NCBI GenBank assembly: GCA_951406725.2
Contig: OX597823.1
Span: forward strand, 91,574,001 to 91,638,000
Length of the DNA: 64,000 nt
From: Octopus vulgaris
Taxonomy: Eukaryota
Direction: 5' to 3'
Shown: positions 6,192 to 64,000 of the stretch, piece after piece
Numbering within the stretch: the first letter of the stretch is position 1
Layout of the letters: every line of letters starts with the position of its first letter
Made by a program: the position numbers and the translations under genes
Notes under the pieces: model-generated
Database searches by the model: none
What the model was told of the DNA's origin: nothing
Seen by the model: only the letters and a program-made list of their open reading frames with translations

Positions 6192-6600
6192 GTGGCTGTG
6201 TGGTAAGTAGCTTGCTTACCAACCACATGATTCCGGGTTCAGTCCCACTGCATGGCACCTTGGGCAGGTGTCTTCTACTATAGCCTCAGGGCCGACCAAA
6301 GCCGTGTGAGTGGATTTGGTAGATGGAAACTGAAAGGAGCCCAACGTATATATGGATATATATATATATTTGTATATGTGTATGTATATATTTGTATGTT
6401 TATGTTTGTCCCCCCAACATCACTTGACAACCGATGCTGGTGTGTTTGCATCCCCATCACTTTGGTTCGGCAAGAGAGACTGATAGAATAAGTACTAGGT
6501 TTACAACGAATAAGTCTTTGGGTTGATTTGCTCGACTAAAGGCGGTGCTCCAGCATGGCTGCAGTCAAATGACTGAAACAAATAAAAGAAAAAGAAAAGA
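6192..6600 (+). mobile_element. SINE family B
   Basis: gtggctgtgtggtaagtagcttgcttaccaaccacatg head and gtcaaatgactgaaacaaataaaag tail. Confidence 0.85.
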
Positions 6601-9230: not shown

Positions 9231-9649
9231 GAGAACTTGATAATTAAAGAAAATAATAATATGATCAAGTAATATAGGAATATTGAAATGAATAACAAGG
9301 AAAATATGGTTTCAAAAATGGAATTTTGTAAAATTTACAATGGAAATATTTTGTGCATTTGAAAACAGTTCTTGTATTCTTGGAGACAGTAAAAGATTGG
9401 AATGAAGTTTGCCAAATTACAATTTTGGTCTCTAAAAGCGATATTCATGTGAAACATTGTTTAATTAAGATATTGTATATATGCAAACAATAGGGTGCAT
9501 GTATGTATGTATGTATGTATGTATGTATGTATGTATGTATGTATGTATGTATGCATGCATGCATGTATGTACGTATGTATGCATGTATGTACGTATATAT
9601 GTATGTATGTGTATATGTATGTATAATAATATGAATAATATATAAATAT

Positions 9650-10232
9650 ATGCATATATACTTACATATACGTACATGCCTATATATATATGTATATATG
9701 CATGCATATATGGGTACAGGACGTCAAAAAAAACGTGAACAAAATGAGAAACAAGAACATAAAAAACAAAAACATGGAAAATGAACGCTTTTGCGAACAA
9801 CGAAAGAAACAAATAGAGAACCGAGACAGGCAAAAAAAGAAAATTTCCTTCATCAGTTGTCCCCTGTTTTATCTACTCCACATTTCAAAGGTAGGGACAA
9901 AACGTGGATTTGTTAAAACAGTCCTTCCCATAAAGCAAATTAAATAAAACATGGAGGGTTAAATTAAATAAAACGCGGAGGGTTAAAGTGGTAACAAAAA
10001 CCGGACAGTGAGAACAAAACAGTTAAAACATGGCGAGGGCTTTTAAGCCATAACGAGGTGATGTGGTGAATGTTAGAAAAATGAGGTTTGAGAAGAGAAA
10101 TGTACAAGCACGTCTTGTCTTTAGGAAGAAAGTAGAAGAAAGAAAGATAGATAGCCGTTGGTCATGTATGAGCAACGAGTGAGTCAAGGAGGAAGAGTGA
10201 GAGAGAGGGAACAGTGAAGGGGAGAGGGGAAC

Positions 10233-10250
<18 letters not shown>
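9650..10250 (-). mobile_element. Diverged copy of the permuted-hammerhead repeat family
   Basis: Homologous by eye to 52040-52650 (tgtcctgtac..atatatgcatg tail, HHR block, upstream ccct.cgcg..ggaagg block). Confidence 0.65.
9847..9907 (-). ncRNA. Non-circularly permuted hammerhead ribozyme-like motif
   Basis: Reverse complement: ccacg TT ttgtccc ta cctt t GAAA tgtgg (14-nt linker) gggacaa CTGATGA agg. Confidence 0.6.
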
Positions 10251-14940: not shown

Positions 14941-15034
<94 letters not shown>

Positions 15035-15044
15035 AAATTAACAA

Positions 15045-15380
15045 ATAAATAAAACATAGGCATATATACATACATATATGTACGTACCTACCTCTACATG
15101 TATATATACATGCATATATGGGTACAGGACACCAAAAAACCGTCGAACACAATGAGAAACGAAAACGTAAACACAAAACCAAGGAAATGGACATTTTTTA
15201 AAACAATGAAAAAAATAGAGTACAGGACATACAAAACAAGGAAACTTCCCCTTCTTCAGTCACCTTAATTTCATCTACTCCACGTTCGAAGGTCAAGACG
15301 ATACATGAAAATTTCCTTCCTGCGAAAATCAAATTAAATAAAATTTGAGATTTTTTTGCGGAGGGGTAAAAATGGTAACA
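15045..15380 (-). mobile_element. Copy of the permuted-hammerhead repeat family (solo LTR-like unit)
   Basis: Homologous to 51230-51560. Motif at 15248-15307, reverse complement: catg TA tcgtctt ga cctt c GAA cgtg (14 nt) aaggtga CTGAAGA agggg. Confidence 0.7.
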
Positions 15381-18907: not shown

Positions 18908-19056
18908 GCGAAGGAGTGGGTGTGTGATAAGTAATTTGCTTACCAATCACATGGTTCTGGGTTCAGTCCCACTGTGTGGTACTTTGGGCTACTACTACAG
19001 CTTTGGGCCAACCAAAGCCTTTTGAGTGGATTAGGTCAACAGAAGCTGAAAGAAGC

Positions 19057-19119
<63 letters not shown>

Positions 19120-32130: not shown

Positions 32131-32220
32131 TTTCGGCTGATGAGTACGGGTCACTTGTATTTGCTGCAATATTTGCATCCTTAATAAAGGTGGTCTTCGT
32201 ACGAAACAATTGTACCGAAA
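32131..32220 (+). ncRNA. Intact type I hammerhead ribozyme (PLE style, palindromic stem III)
   Basis: tttcgg CTGATGA gtacg..cgtac GAAA caattg TA ccgaaa: perfect core, 6-bp stem I, extended stem II, GUA cleavage triplet. Confidence 0.85.
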
Positions 32221-47333: not shown

Positions 47334-47722
47334 GGCGCAGGAGTGGCTGTGTGGTAAGTAGCTTGCTTACCATCCACATGGTTCCCGGTTCAATCCCACT
47401 GCGTGGCACCTTGGGCTAGTGTCTTCTACGATAGTCTTAGGCCGACCAAAGCCTTGTGAATGGATTTGGTTGATAGAAACTGAAAGAAGTCCCTCGTATA
47501 TATGTATATATATATGTGCGTGCGTTTGTGTATCTGTGTTTGTTCCCCTACATCGCTTGATAACCGATGTTAGTGTTTTTATGTCCCCGTAACCTAGCGG
47601 TTCGGCCAAAGAGACCGCTAGAATAAGTACTAAGCTTACAAAGAATAAGTCCAGGGATCGATTGCTCAACTAAAGGCAGTGCTCCAACATGTCCACAGTC
47701 AAATGACTAAAACAAATAAAAG

Positions 47723-51182: not shown

Positions 51183-51291
51183 TAATTTTATTTGTATCGT
51201 TTTTTTGTCACATGTTTAACTTTCCTTGTTTTTACCCCTCTGCGAGGTAATTTTATTTAATTCCTTCGCAGGAAGGATTAGTTCCACGAGT

Positions 51292-51350
51292 CGTGTTCTG
51301 TCCAACTTTCGAAACACGCTGGAGTTGAACTAGGGACAGCTGATGAAGGG
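51292..51350 (+). ncRNA. Non-circularly permuted hammerhead ribozyme candidate
   Basis: cgtg TT ctgtcc aa cttt c GAAA cacg ctggagttgaacta g ggacag CTGATGA aggg. Confidence 0.7.
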
Positions 51351-52392
51351 GATTTTTCCTTGTGTAGTTTGTCTTGTACTCTGTTTTTTTTTCCGTTTAG
51401 GTCCGTTTCCACGTTTGTTTTTACGTTTTCGTTTCTCGTTGAGTTCTACGTCTATTTGTGGTGTCCTGTACTCACGTATATATACTTATATATGCATGTA
51501 TATATACATGTAGATGTAGGTACGTACATATATGTATGTATGTATGCATATATTTTATTTATTTACCCCTCTGCGAGGTAATTTTATTTAATTCCTTCGC
51601 AGGAAGGACTAGTTCCACGAGTCGTGTTCTGTCCAACCTTCGAAACACGTATATATATTTATATATGCATGTATATATACATGTATATATATATGCATGT
51701 ATATATGCATGTATATATACATGTTTTTACGTTTTCATTTCTCGTTGAGTTCTACGTCTATTTGTGGTGTTCTGTACTCACGTATATATATTTATATATG
51801 CATGTATATATACATGTAGATGTAGGTACGTACATATATGTATGTTAGTAAGCATATATTTTATTTATTACACTATTGTATGACTGAGCGCCCTCGCGTC
51901 GATTCGATTCGTTTTCGTTTCGTTTCATCTCCTCCAAGTAAGTTTTGCTATTTATAATTGTGACGCGAAACTCTACAGCTCTTTGCTTGACCTTCTCTTC
52001 CTTCCCTATCTCCCTCTCTCTCTCACAGCCGCTTGTCTTCCTCTATATCTCTCTCTCACTCCTCCTCATCTCTTTCACAGCCGGGCGAGTTGCTTCCTTT
52101 TGCTGCTGGCATTCTAACAGTGAACACTGTTCTTCTAGCGTTCTTAGAATCTTTCCTCGTGTAGGCCAGCATTAAGGCCCTCATTGTCTGTTTTTTTGTT
52201 TGTTTTATTTCTTGTACTGTATTTTTCGTACTTGTAATTTTATTCTGTACTTTTATTTTTTTCTTATTTTTGTATTTTATTTTGTAATTTTATTTGTATC
52301 GTTTTTTTTCACATGTTTAACTTTCCTTGTTTTTACCCCTCTGCGAGGTAATTTTATTTAATTCCTTCGCAGGAAGGAATAGTTCTACGAGT

Positions 52393-52444
52393 CGTGTTCT
52401 GTCCAACCTTCGAAACACGGATGAAGGGACAGCTGATGAAGGGG
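52393..52444 (+). ncRNA. Non-circularly permuted hammerhead ribozyme candidate (short linker)
   Basis: cgtg TT ctgtcc aa cctt c GAAA cacg gatgaa g ggacag CTGATGA agggg. Confidence 0.65.
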
Positions 52445-52646
52445 ATTTTTCCTTGTGCAGTTTGTCTTGTACTCTGATTTTTTCCGTTTAGGTCCGTTTC
52501 CACGTTTGTTTTTACGTTTTCGTTTCTCGTTGAGTTCTACGTTTATTCGTGGTGTCCTGTACTCACGTATATATATTTATATATGCATGTATATATACAT
52601 GTAGATGTAGGTACGTACATATATGTATGTATGTATGCATATATTT

Positions 52647-52684
<38 letters not shown>

Positions 52685-53269: not shown

Positions 53270-54267
53270 TTATATACATGTGTATGTATATATTAATTTT
53301 CAATGGCAATATATATTCATATATATTGATATAGATATGTTTAATACACACACACATGCATAAACATGTGTGTGTGTGTGTTTATTCATGTATAACCATG
53401 TGTCTATGTTTGTGTATGCATATATCACTTGGTGATATATATGCATATATGCATATATGTACATAGATAAGTTTTCTCCTCACATGCACTTGCAAATATA
53501 TATATATATGTGTGTGTGTATACATATCCATGCATATGTATCTATGTATATTATATGTACATATATATATATATAAAATATATATATATGAATATATATA
53601 CACGCACTCACATATATTTATATATATATGTATATATAAATATATATATATATATATATCAATGCATATGTGTATGTATCTATGTATATACCTATCTATC
53701 TATATATATGTATATGTGTATATGTGTATGGCTATAAACACAACAAATAAATGTAACAGTAAAATTTGAATACGAAGGAGAAGTTAATTATTGATGAAGT
53801 ATTTTTGTCACTTCTGTTCAAAACACAGATTAAAATCTCTAATATTTAGATCATCTCTTTAAATATTCATAATCCACAATTTGCTGTAATTCACCATCAA
53901 GACTATCGCTGTTCCTATTGACAAAAGTTTTGATGTAGGCGCAGGTGTGGCTATGTGGTAGGAAGCTTCCCTCCTAACCACATGGTTCTAGGTTCAGTCC
54001 TAATGCTTGGCATCTTGGGTAAGTGTTTTTACTATAGCCTTGGACTGACCATAGACTTGTGAGTGGATTTGGTAGACCAAAACTGAAAGAAGCCCATCAT
54101 ATGTATATATATGTACACAAACACACACACACACACACATATACATACACACACTCACACACACACGCATATATAGGGAGAATTCACAAAAAAAAAACAA
54201 AAGACGAAGACAGGTGGTGTAGACACCAAACAGATGTATTAGTATAACGCTCGGAAATTGAAAAAGT

Positions 54268-55133: not shown

Positions 55134-55205
<72 letters not shown>

Positions 55206-55207
55206 CA

Positions 55208-55747
55208 CACAAGAGTGAGTAAAATAATAATGCCATTTTCTTTAGGACAGGTATAATTACCAACACACGAACATGTATCATACGTCAAAATGAAGCTGGT
55301 CCTCTGCGGATCACAACCCTACTTCTCAACATAGTCACCGTTTCTCTCAATAACAATGTTCCACATTCGAATGAGAGCATGTATCCCTGCCCTGTAGAAT
55401 TCTGTTGACTGTACTTTGAGCCACTTCTTCACTACAGTTTTCACTTCCTATCATCTCTTTGGTCCCATGAAAGAGATTTGAGAGGTAAACATTATTCCAG
55501 TGATGGGGAAGTGAAAACTGTAGTGAAGAAGTGGCTCAAAGAACAGTCAACAGAATTTTACGGGGCAGGGATACATGCTCTCATTTGAAGGTGGAACATT
55601 GCTATCGAGAGAAACGGTGACTATGTTGAGGGGTAGGGATGTGGTCCAGATAGGACCAGCTTCATTTTGATGTATGATACATGTTGCTGTGTTGGTAATT
55701 ATTCCTGGCCTAAACAAAATGTCATTACTTTTTGACCCACCCTCATA
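55208..55747. mobile_element. Mariner-derived foldback MITE made of two 3' ends
   Basis: 240-bp inverted arms 55208-55447 / 55508-55747 encode the transposase C-terminus (EVKTVVKKWLKEQSTEFY.AGIHALI*RWNIAIERNGDYVE). Confidence 0.85.
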
Positions 55748-55748
55748 T

Positions 55749-55787
<39 letters not shown>

Positions 55788-56874
55788 TGGTATTGGTATC
55801 CAGAAGACCCAAGATGGCAGATAAGGCTAAATAAGTGCTATGGGAAGACTGTAGTTAGGTTCTTGTCTTGGCTCGGTAATAATACAAGAGAGGCGCCTAA
55901 TCCACACCTTGTGCGAGCGTGTGTATGTTAAATAAAATGAGACAACAAAACTAAAGCTGTGTGGAATTAACAGGACATTTATAAAGAGAAAGGTTGTCTA
56001 CCTTTTGCTTTATAAATGTCCTATAAATTCCACACAGCCTTGGTTTTTTTTGTCTCATTTTATTTAACACAAACACACACACACACACACACGTACACTC
56101 AATATATACATACATATGCATACACATGTATAGTTTATGTATATATGTATATATAAATATAGTGTCTGCTATATATAACACAATATATAGCACTTCTGCT
56201 ATATATAATACAATTTGGATATATATTCGATATCTATTTGTAGATACATTGTAGGCTTGCTGCCTGAAACCTGCCATACTGTTTCTGTGTCTTCGGTTGG
56301 CGCTTTGCCATAATTGTCACTAAACCAGCTGCCATTTTTGCATTTATTTCTCTTGTAATGTTACAGAACATTTTGATATGTATTCGTTTTTCCGAAATAA
56401 ATTTTCTTTTGAAGTGCATATAACAGTTAGAACAGGCTGTTTAATTTGTCACTGATTGACAACCAATAAAAATATTGTGAAGAAATATCGATAAACTCTG
56501 CCATTACGCTAGAAATCTAACAGCTATTTATCAATTTACACTTTCAGTTAAAAACTAATGGAATAAATTGCATTAGATTCCAGAATTGCCAGAGAACGAT
56601 GCCATCAGAGGTATGAGGAATAGTTACTCCTCAGTTTAAACCATTTTATTCTCCCGTGTGATTGAACAAAAATGTGTTATGATGTCATTAAAATCTATCC
56701 CTGGGGGAGTTTAATGACGTAAATGTAAATAAATTTTGCATTTATCGTTAGTTAGATGTTTGATTGTGTTAAAGGGGTGTGGCGAATAACCTCCGAAAAG
56801 AGGCAAAACTGAAGTGTTAATTAGTTTGTTGCTCACACATTTATAGCGATAACGATGCGGGATATGTCTCTTAT

Positions 56875-62835: not shown

Positions 62836-64000
62836 GTTTTCAACCATTGAGAATTTTATTGATAAGATTTGTCATGGGACAAAAAAAATCATCGGACCAA
62901 AAGATGTCGGACCGAAAGACGTTTGATGATGTGACGTCAGATGAAAAGACATAGCAACGAAATAAAGTGTCTTGCTCAAGAACACAATGCACCATTGAGA
63001 ATTGAACTCACAACCTTATAATCATGAGCCGAAAACCCTGACTATGGATCCACATGGCTCAACTATTGAGAGATTAAAGCATGAAACACAGACAGGCAGA
63101 TAGGCACAGAGAATCTTGCTGTTATGAAGATATGGGACTAACCCAGCATCCAGGTTATATTTGCCCATATCTCAGGCTTCTTCCTTGGCACCCATCTCAG
63201 TACTGTCTGGTTACACTTCATTGCTTGCTTGATGATCTTTGATGAATCGTCTCCTTCCAATGAAAAAGATATCGAACATTATAACAATTTTGAGCAGCTA
63301 ACATCTGTTCTTCCTTTTTGCCATTTCTTATGATGGTGAAAATCCCTCTCCCTTATGGTTACAACCCCATAATGTCATCTTTACATTTCATTGTGCGTTA
63401 TGAGAAATTTCAGATCAGTTACATCAGATTTCAAATCGTTTTAGACAGTTTCTGATTGGCCGTTACAAAGTGCTTTGCTTGTTTCTTTGTCAGCAGATGA
63501 GGGACATATTCCAGGACAGCTTGACCCATCTTCAACACTTGTCTTTTAAAATAATGTGCCTTTAACTGTTGCAGGTGCTTCTTCAGAAACATCATTGACA
63601 GTTTATATAAATGTGAGTGGATTTAGTAAATGGAAATTGAAGGAAGCCCATCGTATATAAGTATGTGTATGTGCATGAGTGTGTGTGTTTGTGTGTATAC
63701 ACACATACACACACACACCACACACACGCACACACACACATACACACACATATATATATATATTTCTGTGTGAGTTAGAGATTGGGAAACCAACCAAGGG
63801 ATAGTATTTATCCAATAGACTGCTGGTAGTTTACCTAATTTTTCATACCCAAGTTTTGGTTATTGTGTGGAAATCTCACAATTGAATATTATATATGAGC
63901 ACGGGTAAAAAGTTATTTACCCTTAATTTATATGGCAAATGTCTACTGGCTGATGTAAGTCTTTTTTGTATCCTCTCCATTTTCTTATTTGCCATATATA

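Follow-up and report, generated by a model that had tools for sequence, protein, structure and literature searches.

The locus studied here raises a question: what kind of element carries hammerhead-like motifs in nearly identical direct repeats, and how would such a motif fold and cut? The locus lies in a 64,000-nucleotide stretch of the Octopus vulgaris genome (contig OX597823.1, positions 91,574,001 to 91,638,000), called the window below. The host genome is 2.8 Gb long and rich in microsatellites. An earlier note on the window described a retrozyme-like arrangement, with two ribozyme-bearing direct repeats around a non-coding core and a truncated third copy. Much of this description holds up. 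The direct repeats (51183-51559 and 52285-52650) share 94.7% identity over 377 alignment columns, the third piece (51562-51870) is scrambled and has the S (cleavage) and G (GAAA) blocks without the CTGATGA block, the middle stretch (51871-52284) is non-coding, with no ORF kept between copies, and the predicted cuts after 51297 and 52398 are indeed 1101 nt apart. The diverged copy that the note had seen maps to the minus strand (about 9640-10235) and its core is degenerate, and there is an additional minus-strand copy at 15010-15345 that the note did not list. What did not survive is the reading of the layout as repeat, core and repeat. What looked like a core belongs to the repeat unit as its 5' half, and mapping of other copies gives a natural unit of about 780-830 nt in place of an 1101-nt monomer.

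On this mapping, a ~0.8-kb non-coding element is present here three times head-to-tail: as a 5'-truncated piece, as a scrambled piece that is also 5'-truncated, and as a full unit. The features are collected in Table 1. S blocks begin at 51292, 51623 and 52393. The shared CACG in the scrambled piece is a microhomology which suggests a template switch. The full unit has an intron-like stretch, whose GTAAGT donor is also retained in subfamily B. Assembled contigs of probable RNA runs span the element and the predicted cut with no splice joint; such contigs are blind to transcript ends, strand and level.

Table 1. Features of the repeat locus and of two related copies, in window coordinates. Ribozyme parts and cuts are predicted.
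Feature	Position	Strand	Basis or remark
5'-truncated unit copy (unit positions ~415-780), pseudo-LTR-like upstream piece	51183-51561	+	sequence mapping
Competing hairpin UCCUUC-GCAG-GAAGGA, able to hide the upstream stem II strand	51262-51277	+	~-8 kcal/mol
Upstream stem II strand GAAGG, copy 1	51272-51276	+	G10.1 first
Tethering helix, 5' strand, copy 1	51278-51284	+	counterpart of Eckert's helix 'I'
S block, copy 1	51292-51303	+	stem III strand, GUU triplet, predicted cut after 51297, stem I strand
G block, copy 1	51306-51318	+	stem II strand (one C-to-T change, giving a G-U pair), GAAA, stem III strand
Tethering helix, 3' strand, copy 1	51327-51333	+	
C block, copy 1	51334-51346	+	stem I strand GGACAG and CUGAUGA
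Scrambled middle piece, no CUGAUGA	51562-51870	+	S and G blocks, switch at shared CACG, TA-rich 3' tail, then last ~140 nt of unit
Full-length unit, ~780 nt	51871-52650	+	5' half is the 'core' of the earlier note
Intron-like stretch	51938-52080	+	sequence: GTAAGT donor, pyrimidine tract, CAG acceptors ending at 52028 and 52080
Upstream stem II strand GAAGG, copy 3	52373-52377	+	
S block, copy 3	52393-52404	+	predicted cut after 52398
G block, copy 3	52407-52419	+	CCUUC GAAA CACG
C block, copy 3	52427-52439	+	
(TA)n run adjoining the 3' end, likely target site	52651-52682		other copies alike
Subfamily B copy, 5'-truncated, core degenerate	9640-10235	-	
Subfamily C copy, 5'-truncated, deletion inside motif	15010-15345	-	

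The motif is predicted to be a hammerhead ribozyme that cuts after H17. Its conserved core is complete (C3 U4 G5 A6 N7 G8 A9, G12 A13 A14 A15.1, U16.1 H17), and its blocks come in the non-circular order S-G-C, where C is the CUGANGA block. The circular orders CGS, GSC and SCG (types I, II and III) do not match it, and an Rfam scan of the window at gathering thresholds gave 0 matches. Across 83 distinct S-G-C motifs, position 7 is T in 53, A in 23, G in 4 and C in 3, and the NUH triplets are GUU, GUA, GUC and AUH. Stems I and II are joined by a short linker, as type SGC demands. Comparable motifs were absent from 7.68 Mb of shuffled window sequence. A pattern scan of metagenomes gave chance matches only, and these were reused as a control: stems I and III were found in 0 of 120 chance matches to the core pattern versus 36 of 42 matches from the octopus genome itself, 33 of which have GAAGG upstream.

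The most unusual point, missed by the earlier note, is how stem II is made. Covariation indicates that its second strand lies upstream of the cleavage block and is not supplied by the bases after CUGANGA. With its partner upstream, the chain would be open between A9 and G10.1, and the motif is predicted to be the SGC/CSG circle opened at that junction. A helix begins 0-2 nt after the upstream stem II strand, and the strand it pairs with lies immediately before stem I. Given upstream stem II, this tethering helix joins the far ends of stems I and II, and it shows compensatory changes. Both window copies depart from the family type: in copy 1 one stem II pair is G-U, and copy 3 is without the tethering helix, having lost a 3' strand which other copies keep.

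Stem III and the tethering helix are separated by an internal loop, which in subfamilies B and C (e.g. L040:1519-1616) places AGUA across from GAA. We take this loop to resemble the loop E or sarcin-ricin motif; it is not seen in subfamily A.

The reading preferred here, to which we give a probability of about 0.7, is that a ~0.8-kb repeat, likely a non-autonomous Penelope-like element (PLE) of Naiad type, was inserted here as three head-to-tail pieces. Its 3' third would carry a full S-G-C hammerhead core with stem II completed from upstream and the chain open at A9/G10.1, and is predicted to cut itself after 51297 and 52398. Plus-strand transcription would run from the upstream partial copy through the unit into the next, as Penelope and Chlamys suggest. 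A PLE protein acting in trans would nick (TA)n and begin to reverse-transcribe the RNA internally, from one of two sites ~74 nt apart; for this step the two 3' ends are observed, and the mechanism is modelled on in vitro work with the PLE protein PAc. Fall-off and template jumps would give the 5'-truncated, tandem, inverted and scrambled pieces which are observed in the genome. The ribozyme would fold through stems I to III together with the tethering helix, as the SGC/CSG permutation opened at the site where those ribozymes have a bulged base. It would probably cut only a fraction of read-through transcripts, for example freeing the element's 5' end. Partial cutting is probable because competing pairings can switch the ribozyme off and because the genomic copies would derive from RNA left uncut; the site is intact in the copies examined, which a query spanning it had selected.

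The other copies in the genome were used to define the unit and its ends. At least 3,919 exact matches to the motif pattern of the GAAGG subfamilies were found, and 0 to the reversed pattern used as a control. Searching the genome for the 3' part yielded 2,475 first-look candidates; 40 were scored, with other loci at 90-93% identity. Twenty-eight other top loci, chosen by a query spanning the cut site, were mapped onto 51871-52651. They show a unit of ~780-830 nt with variable 5' ends and two fixed 3' ends ~74 nt apart, one used by 15 and the other by 12 of the 28 copies; one copy is cut short. (TA)n adjoins 26 of the 27 intact 3' ends, a bias also seen in Neptune-type families of the same genome. 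Inverted pieces are present in 3 of the 28, and at several loci head-to-tail partial pieces are followed by a full unit. First-look candidates number 2,710 for subfamily B and 2,489 for subfamily C, and these sets may overlap. An unrelated-looking sister family, family F, has an 855-nt non-coding unit with the same architecture and the same split-core motif, built with different stems and without the competing 5' hairpin. All 40 of its scored matches, from 1,612 candidates, are ~100% identical, and its arrays exceed two units (loci L361-L375, e.g. L371:670-790). This identity and these arrays suggest that family F has spread very recently.

This behaviour has the hallmarks of a PLE: 5' truncation, partial tandems (pseudo-LTRs), inverted 5' pieces, alternative 3' ends and (TA)n targets. 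PLEs show 5' truncation, partial tandems and a tail, and Naiads are biased to (TA)n, in the sections of PMC8557442 that were available. The two 3' ends recall the two internal start sites that produce the PLE tail (PMC11167929, excerpts); the ~74-nt spacing here is larger than the 30-40 bp described for the tail in the same parts of PMC8557442 and PMC11167929. Copy ends, truncations and tandems support the suggestion of the earlier note that this retroelement is non-autonomous, bears a permuted hammerhead and behaves in the manner of a PLE, and they point to an element which is likely a non-autonomous Penelope-like retroelement of Naiad type. The unit carries no ORF with N-terminal GIY-YIG and RT, and since it is non-coding it is not classed as a Naiad itself.

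The link to Naiads comes from the ribozyme layout. Craig et al. 2021 described Naiads as being without a canonical hammerhead and flagged some as 'HHR_half_core', including an octopus family (PMC8557442, in the portion available). Of the published Naiad consensus sequences in the supplement of that paper (PMC8557442), 48 were read by eye over their last 330-420 nt or at motif matches. The split layout was found in the 3' ends of 10 of the 48 (Bfor, Chem-3, Amil, Aacu, Anas, Movir-2, Plae, EuTe, Obim and Ovul), each with different paired sequences and Aacu with mismatches. The Esco Naiad seems, by eye, to have a degraded version of it. Seven nematode entries have type CSG, which appears intact and well paired, and the other 30 have other motifs, unclear cores or nothing in the part read. 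In the octopus genome, the 3' motif of the octopus Naiad has 237 exact matches (control 0), and the full motif lies 0.87-1.4 kb behind Naiad RT remnants at 6 of 25 and 3 of 30 loci, the others being decayed or too short. Homologs of the Naiad RT piece bear an N-terminal GIY-YIG domain. A word-indexed protein search with a Naiad fragment gave no match, and neither did a comparison of the Naiad alignment with viral contigs.

The earlier note had wondered if this repeat terminates autonomous PLE ORFs. For the exact sequence the answer is no, with a same-strand upstream PLE ORF at 0 of 112 non-autonomous loci; for the ribozyme layout the answer is yes, as it is found at the ends of Naiad elements. 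Judged from these sequences, the split layout likely explains why Naiads seemed to have no hammerhead. On balance we lean towards a broader statement, that this is a seventh natural hammerhead permutation, whose chain ends meet at A9/G10.1 inside the core, and that many Naiads (in ctenophores, cnidarians, acanthocephalans, crustaceans and cephalopods) as well as a large, still spreading non-autonomous set in octopus carry it as a ribozyme that was overlooked. Nematode Naiads would have the sister type CSG, and the step between the two would be traceable on the transposon tree.

The oyster, clam, hemichordate and some hydrozoan Naiad 3' ends have two other conserved, structured-looking motifs in place of the hammerhead (PMC8557442, supplement as read above). 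Naiads may swap ribozyme classes. One of the replacement motifs may resemble HDV-like ribozymes and the other twister-like ribozymes.

The protein acting in trans could come from more than one source. Two young two-ORF Neptune-type PLE families, with RT plus C-terminal GIY-YIG in ORFs of 781 aa and 811 aa (L057 and L101-L106; L376-L386), are present in many intact copies ending in (TA)n, and the sampled Naiad ORFs are all broken, with a longest open frame of 361 aa among the 110 scored of 3,418 candidates. Together with the youth of family F, this makes it conceivable that the element and its fold are as described above, that the helper is an intact Neptune-type PLE, and that the ribozyme was inherited from a Naiad ancestor. 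We hold this version only tentatively, as the strongest of the alternatives. The 3' ends of the 781-aa and 811-aa elements show neither the motif nor any hammerhead (10 and 11 regions), and these elements were rejected as carriers of the motif. The unit has no DNA similarity to Neptune bodies beyond simple repeats, and the same is true of Naiad bodies. The broken Naiad ORFs come from a small scored share of the candidates. Among scored candidates, no autonomous RT/GIY-YIG element has 3' sequence in common with the unit; the ribozyme layout is common with the Naiad. At L062 / L102, on the minus strand and ~1.2 kb past the Neptune-type ORF, there is a type I hammerhead candidate, which is a separate insertion.

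Animal non-LTR retrozymes were reportedly described by Cervera and de la Pena in 2020. The earlier note proposed a cycle of this general kind, with monomers released by tandem ribozymes and then circularised; tandems would arise when the circle is reverse-transcribed more than once round. Li et al. discuss a circle-based cycle for type I retrozymes (bioRxiv 10.64898/2026.07.22.740005, available part). Some features speak for it: head-to-tail junctions fuse the 3' end of the unit exactly to its 5' start, tandem ribozymes are seen in subfamilies A, B and C and in family F, the arrays of family F have more than two units, and animal retrozymes have been proposed to be non-autonomous PLE derivatives (bioRxiv 10.64898/2026.07.22.740005, available part). 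The mapped copies make it unlikely. Two complete tandem ribozymes occur at just one of the 28 other top loci, L020, where they are spaced by one unit (~830 nt), and the rest are 5'-truncated single units, some accompanied by partial pieces, and not an LTR-core-LTR arrangement. Copies end at two fixed sites ~250-330 nt 3' of the cut and not at the cut. The 1101-nt spacing in the window is incidental and owed to the scrambled middle piece. With PAc, the main template is uncleaved RNA, and ribozyme mutants are still inserted (PMC11167929, excerpts).

The preferred reading also depends on the pairing of stem II, for which there are two candidate partners. Pairs were counted over the first five positions of each stem in 16 hand-picked subfamily representatives. 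Stem I has 79 Watson-Crick pairs and 1 G-U of 80, and stem III has 75, with 4 G-U and 1 mismatch. Upstream stem II is Watson-Crick at 80 of 80 positions, with G10.1-C11.1 in 16 of 16 representatives; downstream stem II, in its best register, has 29 Watson-Crick pairs, 28 G-U pairs and 23 mismatches. Because 12 of the 16 share GAAGG, few independent covariation events stand behind these counts. Across all 83 motifs, the GAAA-adjacent strand makes at most two consecutive Watson-Crick pairs with the bases after CUGANGA, and a downstream stem of at least 4 bp is possible in 49 if G-U is included. The same strand makes at least five pairs with the segment upstream of the S block in 70 of the 83, a count biased by the 30 loci which were picked with a pattern requiring GAAGG.

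Four upstream solutions to stem II are found in the genome: GAAGG:CCUUC, GAGCA:UGCUC, GGCUG:CAGCC and GACAC:GUGUC (extended, GACACC:GGUGUC). The last three belong to families found without requiring an upstream partner, and in each the partner is perfect and has G first. For each of them the chance is ~0.02-0.03. The four-helix model beats all 500 shuffles on 4 of 5 measures (pair counts in MAFFT alignment A2, 21 copies), a test inflated by the relatedness of the copies; counts in A2 are lowered in turn by three Naiad rows that are off by one column and by F and Naiad rows that are off in the S block. Downstream stem II is not above shuffles in this alignment.

Other registers were tried and set aside. 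Stem II registers 3' of A9 with 0, 1 or 2 inserted bases pair poorly, and a register with two unpaired bases before GAAA fits some families and fails others by eye. Nested folding gave unremarkable z-scores, and a doubly pseudoknotted fold is beyond its scope.

These numbers bear on whether the motif is an ordinary type SGC, with stem II formed by the G run after CUGANGA plus one bulged base and with the upstream strand acting as an inhibitor or folding helper. The idea has a natural basis. Published SGC ribozymes usually carry one extra base at that place (PMC10085705, available sections), subfamilies A, C and D can pair G-C, G-U, G-U, G-C, and a strong hairpin masks the upstream strand in subfamily A. 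Natural hammerheads include some with a weak stem II, which can have just 1-2 bp (PMC3088659, in part). In the window's subfamily the downstream AGGGG allows a 4-bp stem II with two G-U pairs, both folds are near equal in energy, and the competing hairpin is strong in this subfamily only. The window's subfamily may thus be switched off, or may fold as plain SGC. For the motif as a whole we consider this improbable. The short downstream pairing in all 83 motifs and the lack of covariation above shuffles argue against it. The downstream stem fails in family F, in the octopus Naiad and in several published Naiads. Finally, the helix 'I' that proved necessary in Eckert's work exists here only when the upstream strand serves as stem II.

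An upstream stem II is compatible with what is known of the junction. A9/G10.1 accepts a bulged base in published SGC ribozymes (PMC10085705), in PLE hammerheads and in the CChMVd ribozyme, as far as the available excerpts go. A search of full-text literature found no experiment on a hammerhead working with its chain ends between A9 and G10.1. Across all families, the sequence that starts at G8 frequently resembles the upstream stem II strand (slid control), and its potential pairing with the GAAA-adjacent strand is a possible built-in off switch.

It is very unlikely that the motif has stopped cleaving and persists as a structured handle used by the PLE protein or as a stabiliser, since the invariant core, free position 7 and NUH triplet kept across unrelated subfamilies and phyla would be needless for a handle. 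Some points favour the idea: in several families the bases from G8 can pair with the GAAA-adjacent strand, which would sequester the core, nested folding predicts inactive folds, and only 1 of 9 frog retrozyme dimers was cleaved in the available part of bioRxiv 10.64898/2026.07.22.740005.

If the preferred reading is right, the CUGANGA block can be split after all, contrary to the earlier assumption, and hammerheads gain a topology beyond the six predicted in 2023. The reading would also move non-circularly permuted hammerheads from anonymous metatranscriptomes to animal genomes, at high copy number. Naiads dominate many invertebrate genomes; their seeming absence of hammerheads would be explained, and one argument that the ribozyme is dispensable there would fall away. 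A ~90-nt RNA of the very young family F would offer a simple test. The motif escapes both Rfam and standard ribozyme descriptors, so elements of this sort have probably gone unannotated in many genomes.

The window has other repeats of its own. A type I hammerhead of canonical C-G-S order lies at 32133-32218 on the plus strand; its loop II is long, and a short tail and (TA)n come after it. This is probably the 3' end of another PLE family, and the same family is also present twice, inverted, in L059. An inverted repeat at 55166-55789, with 283-nt arms that are 84% complementary and 58 nt apart, lies between microsatellites; it looks like a MITE or a fold-back of a mariner-type piece. Copies of a common SINE-like repeat at 6277-6394, 18993-19110, 47427-47544, 54030-54147 and 63612-63698 have the same 3' end, followed by microsatellites.

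How does the window element compare with known systems? A search of full-text literature, with subscription journals, Repbase and Dfam outside its scope, returned no description of a genomic SGC or CSG hammerhead, of a split core or of this element. The repeat may already be catalogued without its ribozyme. The closest ribozyme is type SGC, which Eckert et al. 2023 named and validated in vitro, including a required fourth helix 'I' tying stems I and II together (PMC10085705). They assumed CUGANGA and its stem II strand to be inseparable, predicted six permutations, and reported type SGC from metatranscriptomes only, with none in the genomes of known organisms, in the sections available (PMC10085705). 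Like type SGC (HRIMA-1 and its variants, PMC10085705), the window motif has the S-G-C order, the core bases, the short linker and the tethering helix. Unlike type SGC, where the stem II strand comes directly after CUGANGA with an insert of 0-2 nt, the motif has this strand at its 5' end and resides in thousands of genomic copies of a mobile element (same parts of PMC10085705); directly after CUGANGA there is at most a weak, G-U-rich version, possible in the GAAGG subfamilies. Type CSG, with two metagenomic examples in the same sections (PMC10085705), has the same cyclic order C-S-G as the window motif, whereas its circle is opened after stem III and not at A9/G10.1.

As mobile elements, plant LTR retrozymes are the most distant, with true LTRs, a type III hammerhead and a 4-bp target duplication; here truncated units make up the repeats, a type III motif is absent, and (TA)n borders the ends. 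The animal non-LTR retrozymes of Li et al. 2026 are also non-coding, ribozyme-bearing, tandem-forming and PLE-related, whereas they have a type I hammerhead in every tandem unit and the octopus element has a non-circularly permuted one in mostly truncated single copies (bioRxiv 10.64898/2026.07.22.740005, available part). Chlamys MRC1 is closer, being non-autonomous and head-to-tail, with a pseudo-LTR formerly taken for an LTR; its 3' end resembles its autonomous partner by sequence, whereas here the RNA fold alone is shared (PMC8557442, in part). Naiads differ from the window element, which has no ORF, is ~0.8 kb long, and has other stem sequences, a longer 3' tail and no alignable body DNA. 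The two are alike in their 5' truncation, partial tandems, inverted pieces and (TA)n targets (PMC8557442, portion available), and the octopus Naiad shares the split layout.
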